Source: Candidatus Methanoperedens sp. (GTDB lineage Archaea; Halobacteriota; Methanosarcinia; Methanosarcinales; Methanoperedenaceae). From it: a stretch of 32,000 nucleotides of DNA. Each line of letters starts with the position of its first letter. Position 1 is the first letter of the stretch. The position numbers and the translations under genes were made by a program. Below the pieces are notes generated by a model. That model worked only from the letters and a program-made list of their open reading frames with translations. It made no database searches and was not told the origin of the DNA. Shown piece by piece: positions 2,458 through 5,167 of the stretch. The DNA is taken from assembly GCA_028715885.1 (NCBI GenBank), contig JAQUQX010000014.1:6038-38037 (forward strand), written 5' to 3'.

Positions 2458-3006
2458 CTATTTTTTCTCTTCTAGAGCTTTGATCTGGCTGGTTAGTTCC
2501 TTTACTGTTTTCTTAAGAGAATACAACTCTTTGTTGATCTCATCGATTTCCGTCTTTGTAGGGAGATTCATGGGTTTCAGATAATTCTCTTCGAGCATTT
2601 CCCTGTTGTATTTTTGAAAATCCATTAAATGCGAATTCAATTTCCCCATGTCCGATGCAAAGTGGCCAGATTTCATGAATTCCTTGAAGGTCTCGCTATA
2701 CGTCTCGATCCAGATATTGTAAAATTCCTTGTATTTCTCAGGACTTATCTCACCGTTCATATCTGGCGCTGTCTTTTCCTGCACTTTCTGCATTGCTTCC
2801 ATGAATACGCTCTGGAAATTGGAATTGGAATCCATCCCTGCTGCATAAAGGTTAACAAAAGTAGAGAAACCCTTCATCATTTTTTCAGATTTCTCACGTG
2901 CTGGACCCAGTGCAGGCATCTCTACGAGCCTGCCTGTGGTGGCGTTGTATACATTTAACCACTGGTCAAAAAATTCCTGGGTGGATTCAAAACTGGATTT
3001 TTCCAT
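2458..3006 (-). CDS. phaE: PHA synthase subunit PhaE (short archaeal-type)
   Basis: 182 aa, located 21 nt upstream of phaC. C-terminal coiled-coil segment LPTKTEIDEINKELYSLKKTVKELTSQIKALEEKK. Carries one PEKYKEFYNIW motif shared with the upstream repeat protein. The stop codon is TAG. Confidence 0.7.
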   Translation of the reverse strand: MEKSSFESTQEFFDQWLNVYNATTGRLVEMPALGPAREKSEKMMKGFSTFVNLYAAGMDSNSNFQSVFMEAMQKVQEKTAPDMNGEISPEKYKEFYNIWIETYSETFKEFMKSGHFASDMGKLNSHLMDFQKYNREMLEENYLKPMNLPTKTEIDEINKELYSLKKTVKELTSQIKALEEKK

Positions 3007-3008
3007 AT

Positions 3009-4121
3009 TTAAACCGTGTCTTTGGAGGTGTGATACGATTTTACCCAGATATTTGACATGTTGCTAAATGTATCTGCGTATATCTTGGCAGCATTCTTCA
3101 CAGGCTCCATAATCTCCTTAAACGGGCTGAATGTGGGTGTGTTCTCAAAGAAGTTATCAAATGCCTTTCCATACATTTTTGCCCAGAGATTATAAAGTTC
3201 TTTATATGCCTCCGGGTCAGCGCCCTGCTTTGATAGTTCATCAGCTTTCTGTGACAGTTTTCCAAGAGTTGCTATCCAGGATTTGTAGAGGTTCTGATTG
3301 ACGTTTGCGCTGCGCTCAAATTGCTCTAATACTTCCTTTGAAGGTCTCATGGACTGGGCATCAAACATCCTGCCATAGAGCTCCTGATATGTGTTCATCC
3401 ATAAGGTATGAAATTCCTTATAGGCTTCAGGGCTCGCATTCCCCCGGGAGATCTCTGCTGATTTCATAGAAAGCTTCAGCATGGAGTCAGCATACGGCGC
3501 ATATAGCTTTGCGTATGAATCTTTCCATATTTTTGATATCTGCTCAAATGCCTCTGAATATATGTCGGGTGTTCCTGTGATGTTCTCAAATATCTCCTTC
3601 ATATTTTGCTGCAATGGCAGTGTAAGAAGCTCGTTGAGCATTTTCCCATAGGACTTTATCCACATATCATAGACTTCTTTATATTTTGCAGGATCTGCTT
3701 CGCACTGGAGTACTTCGCGGGTCGCTCTTGAATTCTCATCTAATTCGGCTATCCATGAACTGTATATTTTATTTGATTCCTCTGCGCTAACCAGGAGTTT
3801 CTCAAATGTTTCCTTATTGGATTCCAGGGTCGGGATTTGATAAAATTTACCGAAACTGTTCTGGGAGGTTTTCAACCATTCTCCATAAAATTCCTTATAT
3901 GTTTCCGGTGCAGCATCCTTTGAGAGTTCAAACGCTTTCCCGAAAAGCGCTTCTGTGGATTCGAACCAGGGCTTGTATAGCTTTAAGTAGGAATCTTCCC
4001 ACATTTTTGATACTGCTGTGTAGCTGTCTTCGCATGTCTTGAAACTATTCTTTTTTTCTGTGTGGATATCTGCTTTGTGGATATCTTTTCTTTCTTCAGA
4101 TTTTCTTACCATACTATTCAT
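3009..4121 (-). CDS. PhaE-motif repeat protein, putative PHA-granule-associated (phasin-like) protein
   Basis: 370 aa with an ATG start, ending 2 nt upstream of phaE. Four copies of P-[EA]-x-Y-K-E-[FVL]-[YH]-x-x-W at aa 72, 144, 231 and 303, within an (AB)2 internal duplication. No signal peptide or TM segment. Confidence 0.6.
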   Translation of the reverse strand: MNSMVRKSEERKDIHKADIHTEKKNSFKTCEDSYTAVSKMWEDSYLKLYKPWFESTEALFGKAFELSKDAAPETYKEFYGEWLKTSQNSFGKFYQIPTLESNKETFEKLLVSAEESNKIYSSWIAELDENSRATREVLQCEADPAKYKEVYDMWIKSYGKMLNELLTLPLQQNMKEIFENITGTPDIYSEAFEQISKIWKDSYAKLYAPYADSMLKLSMKSAEISRGNASPEAYKEFHTLWMNTYQELYGRMFDAQSMRPSKEVLEQFERSANVNQNLYKSWIATLGKLSQKADELSKQGADPEAYKELYNLWAKMYGKAFDNFFENTPTFSPFKEIMEPVKNAAKIYADTFSNMSNIWVKSYHTSKDTV

Positions 4122-4175
4122 CTCTTTTTATTTTTTATTAAATACGGGGTCTTTATTTCCCGGATTCCCAGAATT

Positions 4176-4195
4176 CCCCGGAATTAATTCCGGGG
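4176..4195. promoter_or_regulatory. perfect 20-bp palindrome CCCCGGAATTAATTCCGGGG upstream of the PHA operon; candidate operator
   Basis: Read directly and self-complementary over all 20 nt. It lies 55-74 nt upstream of the 4121 start codon. GGGGTCTT occurs three times nearby (4146, 4192, 4201) and TCCGGGG twice. This is a G/C-rich island in an otherwise AT-rich spacer. Confidence 0.4.
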
Positions 4196-4247
4196 TCTTC
4201 GGGGTCTTTTTCCGGGGTATTATCTTCTCAACCAGTGGTATTGAATT

Positions 4248-4438: not shown

Positions 4439-4741
4439 TTATTCTAACATTTCGTCTGTACTTAGCAGGTATCTTGCTCTTTCCATGTTTATCTCCTCAA
4501 CCATCTTCCATGAAGACCAGTTATGGATGAGTGCTTCTTTGGGAAAAAACTTCATGAAACCTGGTACTGATCCCAAAGTCTTCTCTATATCTCCAAGCGT
4601 ATCTTCATATAACTCATCAAGGTTGACATTAGAATAGAGATAATCTCCATTTCCCACATCAACCGTGATGTCAGCAAACGGCCCTTCATGATTAATTTGC
4701 TGGACGATACCCTCCGGTACATTTATTTCTTTAAATTCCAT
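4439..4741 (-). CDS. hypothetical protein (100 aa)
   Basis: The ORF track starts at GTG 4750. ATG at 4741 is preceded by AGGTGA (4752..4747) with 5-nt spacing, so it is preferred. The C-terminal half (LGSVPGFMKFFPKEALIHNWSSWK) faintly recalls the start of carboxymuconolactone-decarboxylase-family proteins, but the domain would be incomplete. Confidence 0.5.
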   Translation of the reverse strand: MEFKEINVPEGIVQQINHEGPFADITVDVGNGDYLYSNVNLDELYEDTLGDIEKTLGSVPGFMKFFPKEALIHNWSSWKMVEEINMERARYLLSTDEMLE

Positions 4742-5167
4742 GTATTTCACCTTTTAATTAGTTCCCCTGAAGTAATTCAAGGGTAATATTCCTGAACCCA
4801 GTAGTCCCTATTGCTGCTAGGCTCTCATAACAACCCCACAACCTTACATATCGGGCAATGTCCTAATAGTCACCCCCATATATATAGTTACCCATTATAT
4901 ATTTTTGTTTTATATAGTAATAATTACATTTAGTATTAATTATTAAATTTACATATAACTATTCTCGATTTCCTATTAAATTCCACCTTCCGATTGCTGG
5001 TGAATCTTACTCTATGTTTCCACCGGCACTTCCTCTAACATCATTATATAGATTTTTATGTTCATAGTATCCCTCTTTTGTGTTTTATTGGATTCATTTA
5101 GAACCACCAAATATCTATACAACGGCAAATATTATCAAGTTAAACCACAATCCTGAAGTACCGCAAA

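Follow-up and report, generated by a model that had tools for sequence, protein, structure and literature searches.

A tail-less PhaE paralogue heading the polyhydroxyalkanoate operon of Candidatus Methanoperedens, a putative phasin-like granule protein

The polyhydroxyalkanoate (PHA) operon in a 32,000-nucleotide (nt) stretch of DNA from the methane-oxidising archaeon Candidatus Methanoperedens sp. (assembly GCA_028715885.1, contig JAQUQX010000014.1, positions 6,038 to 38,037; hereafter the window) begins with a gene for a protein of 370 amino acids (aa), P0001 in our set. A preliminary description of the window had placed this open reading frame (ORF) at positions 3009–4121 and at the head of the operon, and both placements hold; the strand, which it left unsaid, is minus. 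Judged by its sequence, the protein is a paralogue of PhaE, the subunit needed for class III PHA synthase activity, which has lost the conserved C-terminal tail of PhaE and in which the internal repeats are unusually well preserved or re-duplicated. We lean moderately towards a putative role for it on PHA granules, as a coat or scaffold of phasin type that arose from the body of PhaE.

A phmmer search of 1.8 billion representative proteins returned only 173 relatives of the tail-less protein. The close ones are 340–390 aa long, and the distant full-length ones (23–30% identity) are canonical long PhaE proteins with full-length PF09712 matches of 100–144 bits. Comparison of 36 family members with 26 long PhaE proteins by hhalign gave a probability of 100% over 319 colinear columns (E 5.7e-46; here and below, E-values from our in-house scripts refer to very small search sets, and bit scores are the safer guide), with family columns 14–366 lying on PhaE columns 7–337 of 386. 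The family covers the whole PhaE body and ends just before the conserved tail, the last ~50 residues of PhaE being gone. The tail (consensus PIxTxxEMDxVxxxxYxLKKxV) is absent from the tail-less protein and present in the adjacent 182-aa PhaE (NLPTKTEIDEINKELYSLKKTV), in agreement with the initial view of the protein as an array of PhaE-type modules without the PhaE C-terminal part. Among the 36 relatives, 33 match PF09712 at E below 0.01, several of them over the cut-off; TIGR01834 gives no match to the tail-less protein itself at E up to 1.

The repeat structure holds at the level of motifs and of whole units. A regular expression recovered the previously listed copies of P[EA]xYKE[FVL][YH]xxW at aa 72, 144, 231, and 303 (spacing 72/87/72), together with the single copy at aa 89 of the adjacent PhaE, and not one of 100,000 shuffles of the 370-aa protein held even a single copy. 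The type A motif SK[MI]W[EK]DSY[LA]KLY was found at aa 38 and 196, as described; the type B motif occurs at aa 117 in the form originally given, while its second copy (LYKSWIATL, aa 278) is reached only with a looser form. The proposed internal repetition is evident from the comparison of residues 1–180 with residues 181–370 (37% identity over 150 aa, E 6e-36) and from the resemblance between A and B units (24–45% identity, E 1e-6 to 1e-13).

A hidden Markov model (HMM) of the unit, with 72 positions and trained on the units of 17 relatives, recognises four complete units in the tail-less protein, each at 91–107 bits and all on the minus strand. Unit A1 (aa 30–99, positions 3825–4034; 92.2 bits) contains SKMWEDSYLKLY and PETYKEFYGEW; unit B1 (aa 102–170, positions 3612–3818; 90.9 bits) contains NKIYSSWIAEL and PAKYKEVYDMW; unit A2 (aa 188–258, positions 3348–3560; 95.9 bits), which is 38% identical to A1, contains SKIWKDSYAKLY and PEAYKEFHTLW; and unit B2 (aa 260–330, positions 3132–3344; 107.3 bits) contains LYKSWIATL and PEAYKELYNLW. 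As a control, the same HMM was run against 16,854 six-frame ORFs of this genome, where it matched only the tail-less protein and the adjacent PhaE. Of the partial fifth unit suggested earlier, there remains a weak similarity to the beginning of A1 (22 aa at 36% identity), which the unit HMM does not detect. The segment in question is a conserved C-terminal helix (aa 334–370; positions 3012–3122, minus strand), and four residues of the C-terminal region (P333, E339, K342, and Y348) are nearly invariant in the alignments of relatives. It is possibly the start of a fifth unit, by its likeness to A1, and it stops where the PhaE tail would start (the hhalign end point at column 337 of 386).

The unit HMM also matches each long PhaE in about four places (aa ~25–70, 80–140, 155–222, and 238–305). 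Hence the preliminary idea of a novel serial duplication of a PhaE motif has to be abandoned, as canonical long PhaE has the same four ~72-aa units; nor is the architecture unrecorded, for many relatives carry PF09712 matches in databases, and a published table of Borg proteins labels a matching subfamily of 369/371 aa. Because the long PhaE proteins share the four units and a colinear body, we read the protein as a tail-less PhaE paralogue rather than as a new array. The two are homologous over ~320 colinear columns, of similar size, and both encoded beside phaC, the tail-less gene being one gene away in the same operon in the window, an arrangement conserved in dozens of loci. They differ, apart from the tail, in that the strict form YKEFYxxW occurs four times in the tail-less protein while no long PhaE protein checked has more than one copy, if it has any, and in that the tail-less protein is multi-copy and coexists with a separate short PhaE. 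Both of its halves fit canonical units 3–4 (E 3e-27 and 6.5e-31) better than units 1–2 (E 2e-20 and 2.7e-19), and per-unit HMMs give equal scores for A1 and A2 on canonical unit 3; this pattern suggests that a unit pair was duplicated again, or homogenised, at a later time within the lineage.

Canonical long PhaE is itself self-related, with E 1e-16 between its halves and E 9e-16 between units 3 and 4 (alignment A2 of our set, 26 proteins). We found no description of this four-unit build in the limited literature covered, which included no search aimed at PhaE repeats.

The family was detected in 40 of the 48 sampled genomes of Methanoperedenaceae and in three of 102 genomes from other families of the order; among 401 sampled genomes of the phylum, it was present in only three. 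It is nearly confined to Methanoperedenaceae and often forms two or three tandem paralogues, with up to 11 matches per Methanoperedenaceae genome, many of them in tandem. Relatives named in databases belong to Ca. Methanoperedens or to unresolved Methanosarcinales bins, except one labelled Ca. Methylomirabilis, and all are annotated as "hypothetical protein"; the family is visible in databases as "PhaE-like" yet uncharacterised. No relatives were found on IMG/VR viral contigs.

Synteny was examined in four fetched genome loci (L015, L016, L018, and L020) and 23 long metagenome loci. The typical order is one to three copies of the family, a short phaE (182–229 aa), and phaC, usually followed, where the contig reaches, by phaB, phaA, and a second reductase-like gene; three loci have no phaB-like gene there. 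Solo copies and copies beside divergent hydrolases also occur. The phylogenetic tree divides the family into two paralogue clades (support 100/98), one of them consisting mostly of the phaE-adjacent copy and the other of more distal and solo copies. The protein from the window falls in the distal clade though its gene abuts phaE, since the genome has a single copy. In all 10 genomes tested, the family and phaC are present or absent together: the five members of the genus that lack the family lack phaC too, and five genomes that carry it all have phaC. This conservation bears on the idea that the gene is a decaying or functionless phaE duplicate, which could account for the loss of the tail that defines a working PhaE. 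We consider that idea very improbable, given an intact reading frame, 428 homologues in which many Trp, Tyr, and Pro positions are invariant, the retention of both ancient paralogue clades, and synteny conserved over dozens of loci.

In physical character, the tail-less protein (43 kDa, isoelectric point 5.5, 14% aromatic residues, and no hydrophobic segment) has a mean helical hydrophobic moment of 0.32, compared with 0.196 +/- 0.017 for shuffled sequences. AlphaFold2 (AF2) with a 57-sequence alignment predicts an all-helical protein (predicted local distance difference test, pLDDT, 71; predicted template-modelling score, pTM, 0.41). In this model each unit, e.g., A1, is a long helix of ~40 residues, a short loop, and a short helix of ~22 residues capped by the PExY motif. 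A model made from the single sequence was poor (pLDDT 52) and was set aside for the alignment-based one. Pfam and NCBIfam scans found no DNA-binding or enzymatic domain in the protein. Amphipathic helices without an enzymatic domain are a trait of the phasin class, and the tail-less protein has it.

The protein stands outside the bacterial phasin families and apart from haloarchaeal PhaP, as had been proposed, with no family-model match and an hhalign probability of at most 3% against PhaP. Some contact with Phasin_2 is seen among its relatives: 9 of the 36 match this family weakly in the region of unit B2, and one of them (P0097) reaches 26.5 bits on PF09361 at aa 250–321, the sole score above the cut-off of 24.9. 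Compared with bacterial Phasin_2 (PhaP1 type, Cupriavidus necator), the tail-less protein shares, apart from this weak similarity of B2 in relatives, the amphipathic helical character, but its size is two to three times theirs and it is composed of four units. The place directly upstream of phaE-phaC, which the tail-less gene occupies in the window, belongs in haloarchaea to phaP, a gene whose product is a proven phasin (PMC7137286). Both products are acidic and helical and lack enzymatic domains; PhaP, however, has ~150 aa and is not repeat-built. Initial HMM matches of 8–12 bits upstream of haloarchaeal phaE had pointed to a kinship with PhaP, which was dropped after profile–profile comparison. 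No AbrB-type phaR was identified beside the tail-less gene.

Several lines of evidence lead us to prefer the coat or scaffold. The gene stands first in the operon, is present in differing copy numbers, and occurs in tandem, as is often seen with phasin genes, and the family tracks phaC in the genomes tested. The protein has amphipathic helices, some relatives match Phasin_2 weakly in unit B2 (above the cut-off in one case), and the position is that of the proven haloarchaeal phaP. In addition, this genome has no PF09361 gene, and its lone PF05597 gene lies beside an ABC1/UbiB kinase gene. The loss of precisely that tail which a minimal working PhaE retains speaks against the tail-less protein being the partner of the synthase. 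Under the proposed mechanism, the short PhaE would bind and activate PhaC through its tail, and the tail-less protein, made from the first cistron, would cover the growing polyester granule via its amphipathic, aromatic-striped helices; it would act like a phasin or scaffold and control the surface, number, and size of granules.

A number of observations weigh against such a role. PF09361 (Phasin_2), PF05597, and the NCBIfam phasin and PhaR models all fail to match the tail-less protein at E up to 1, and even on PF09712 it stays below the cut-off (19.5 vs. 25.7 bits). Foldseek comparison of the alignment-based model with the PDB yielded nothing better than E 0.7 or a template-modelling (TM) score of 0.2. 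The conserved aromatic stripes could be merely the core of a folded helical repeat. When ten ORFs located directly upstream of haloarchaeal phaE were aligned and set against three references (the family, long PhaE, and the unit), the probability did not exceed 3% and E was not below 0.015, these scores being close to those of a reversed-sequence control; the parallel with haloarchaeal PhaP is, by this comparison, positional only. Haloarcula PhaE has been reported not to stay on granules (PMC7137286), and for this reason the PhaE body is, by analogy, not necessarily a granule binder. The literature searched contained neither a Methanoperedens granule proteome nor an expression value for the tail-less gene.

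Two further points of this kind come from the operon itself: the adjacent PhaE consists of only ~1.4 units plus the tail, and the 2-nt gap between the two genes suggests coupled translation. Both favour a third synthase subunit, which would supply in trans the ~2.6 body units missing from the short PhaE and bind PhaE or PhaC by unit–unit contacts, so that the active enzyme would be a three-protein complex. The short PhaE (182 aa; positions 2458–3006, minus strand) matches PF09712 at 92.9 bits over profile positions 158–310 only, and the unit HMM matches its aa 7–32 and 52–112, i.e., ~0.4 + 1 units, after which the conserved C-terminal tail follows. Short archaeal PhaE in general (~20 kDa; haloarchaea and the 182-aa neighbour) shares with the tail-less protein the PExYKEFYxxW unit (E ~1e-13) and the operon, but the former combines ~1.4 units with a tail whereas the latter has four units and no tail. 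The colinearity of the family with the entire PhaE body and its occurrence with phaC in 10 of 10 genomes would suit a subunit as well. Haloarchaeal PhaE of the same short size, however, restores PHA synthesis in a phaEC deletion strain together with PhaC alone (PMC7137286, PMC2939530). Moreover, one to three copies per operon and solo copies away from phaEC are a better fit to a structural protein, either paralogue clade can be the sole copy, and in a Borg a matching 369-aa protein stands beside a PhaE which, known by its length only (412 aa), would have room for a body of its own. On this evidence a third subunit is unlikely, though it is the most serious of the alternatives.

The Borg proteins come from the Supplementary Data of Schoelmerich et al. 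(2024; PMC11208441), where Black Borg proteins of 371 and 369 aa are placed in subfam2598 with two PF09712 labels, and the 369-aa protein is encoded directly upstream of the 412-aa PhaE and PhaC. The subfamily is flagged as universal, i.e., encoded in all 17 Borgs, and is not discussed in the text of that paper. We infer that subfamily 2598 is the tail-less PhaE family, matched by size, label, and position only. The same paper reads the Borg PHA cluster as degradative (PMC11208441). This reading and the universal flag of the matching subfamily (17/17 Borgs) would agree with a regulator or adaptor of granule turnover in place of a bulk coat. The function of such a protein might be to recruit a depolymerase, to govern granule partitioning, or to titrate PhaE via non-productive PhaE-like pairs. 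The copies at loci L073 and L078, which adjoin divergent alpha/beta hydrolases (33–38% identical to PhaC) instead of phaEC, are in line with this possibility as well. Most copies, on the other hand, head a biosynthetic operon, no DNA-binding or enzymatic domain was found in the Pfam and NCBIfam scans, and nothing points to turnover directly; we hold it to be improbable.

Returning to the coat or scaffold, the family presents the PhaE body on its own, as a conserved protein that stands free and exists in several copies. In the gene next to it, hardly more than the tail is left, so that body and tail can be tested separately. A PDB sequence search with one long PhaE gave only chance matches (E above 0.3) and turned up no PhaE structure, the same search with the tail-less protein gave no matches, and the literature covered assigns no role to the PhaE body. 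Tentatively, and with more doubt than assurance, we propose that the whole PhaE may be a fusion of two functions: a body that binds granules and consists of four ancient helical-hairpin repeats of a phasin-like kind, and a short tail, similar to PhaR, by which PhaC is bound and activated. Methanoperedens and Borgs would then carry the parts separately, the free body having expanded into a new archaeal phasin family. If true, this would open a first way to the function of PhaE, a subunit whose structure is unsolved, and offer a naturally "split" system for testing it.

PHA storage in Methanoperedens has been connected with survival under stress and with the production of acetate and current, and in a Methanoperedens enrichment phaC and phaE rank among the highest 3% of transcripts (PMC11337218). 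For PHA storage, a 2026 review of the Methanoperedenaceae lists only phaCE and no granule protein, and in the supplements covered, the ISME J salt-stress paper has no phaE or phasin rows. The tail-less family is the leading candidate for a Methanoperedens granule protein, and if the Borg table names this family, all 17 Borgs have it in their common gene set. A new PHA-binding module could also find use in tagging bioplastic beads, for affinity or for display. New in this work are the joint presence and absence with phaC, the two paralogue clades, the generality of the repeats in the PhaE family, the Borg link, and the negative result for PhaP.

The operon comprises five minus-strand genes, namely, those for the tail-less protein, the short PhaE, PhaC, a PhaB-type reductase, and a thiolase, with successive gaps of 2, 21, −4, and 28 nt. 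PhaC, the catalytic subunit of the PHA synthase (class III; 379 aa; positions 1297–2436), scores 474 bits on TIGR01836 (cut-off 365). The next gene, which overlaps the end of phaC by 4 nt, encodes a putative PhaB-type short-chain (acetoacetyl-CoA) reductase (245 aa; positions 563–1300), the function being assigned by position and family from the translation, spacing, and conserved synteny. The thiolase PhaA (positions 1–534) is cut by the window edge and was recognised by its translation and by conserved synteny with a 392-aa homologue in other loci.

The start of the tail-less gene and the region upstream of it deserve separate mention. Met4 (4112–4110) is invariant in two alignments of the relatives (A1 and A3 of our set) and Met1 is not conserved; the true start is therefore probably Met4 at 4112, which would give a product of 367 aa and shift all motif positions by −3. 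An A/T-rich, TATA-like stretch is read just upstream (positions 4125–4144, minus strand), ~26 nt from Met4. This fits the usual archaeal distance of ~26 nt between TATA element and start and suggests that the mRNA may be leaderless. Approximately 35–55 nt further upstream lies a perfect palindrome of 20 base pairs (bp), CCCCGGAATTAATTCCGGGG (positions 4176–4195, within a wider region at 4141–4220), near-identical copies of which precede the homologous gene in loci L004, L006, L011, L013, and L020; a weaker match in L016 is located between phaB and phaA. We regard this palindrome as a candidate operator for a putative PHA regulator.

An ORF of 103 aa at positions 4439–4750 (minus strand) has no Pfam or NCBIfam match; at least 11 other loci carry a conserved copy (52–80% identity) just upstream of their PhaE-like gene, and L015 has a weaker second copy between the paralogues. 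This ORF may belong to the PHA locus. At the other end of the operon the window breaks off inside phaA; in other loci (L015, L016, L027, L031, and others), the gene after phaA is regularly one for a further short-chain dehydrogenase, ~283 aa long and with 40% identity to PhaB.

The sole PF05597 gene of the genome encodes a 105-aa protein and is located away from the PHA genes (positions 1432–1749 of locus L023; contig C2 of genome G000, ~27.6–28.0 kb), directly upstream of the ABC1/UbiB kinase gene. PF05597 is also matched in the control genome of Methanosarcina acetivorans. The protein is probably not PHA-specific, and the "phasin" for which the Borg paper reports high expression may be this one.

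Among the other genomes, G101 (loci L016–L019) has two complete pha operons, each headed by a PhaE-like paralogue. It also has a pair of a paralogue and a short phaE without phaC, a solo 466-aa version with an N-terminal extension, and a third close phaC elsewhere in the genome. The phaE-adjacent copy is degenerate in L057, L059, and L082, where it has 269–350 aa, ~44% identity, and one unit recognised by the HMM. Finally, in small genomes from another family of the phylum (L112–L114), a PhaE of 295–320 aa is encoded beside phaC, and in L114 an upstream ORF of 105 aa weakly matches the PhaE body (15 bits); by this similarity, free PhaE-body fragments may occur outside Methanoperedens.

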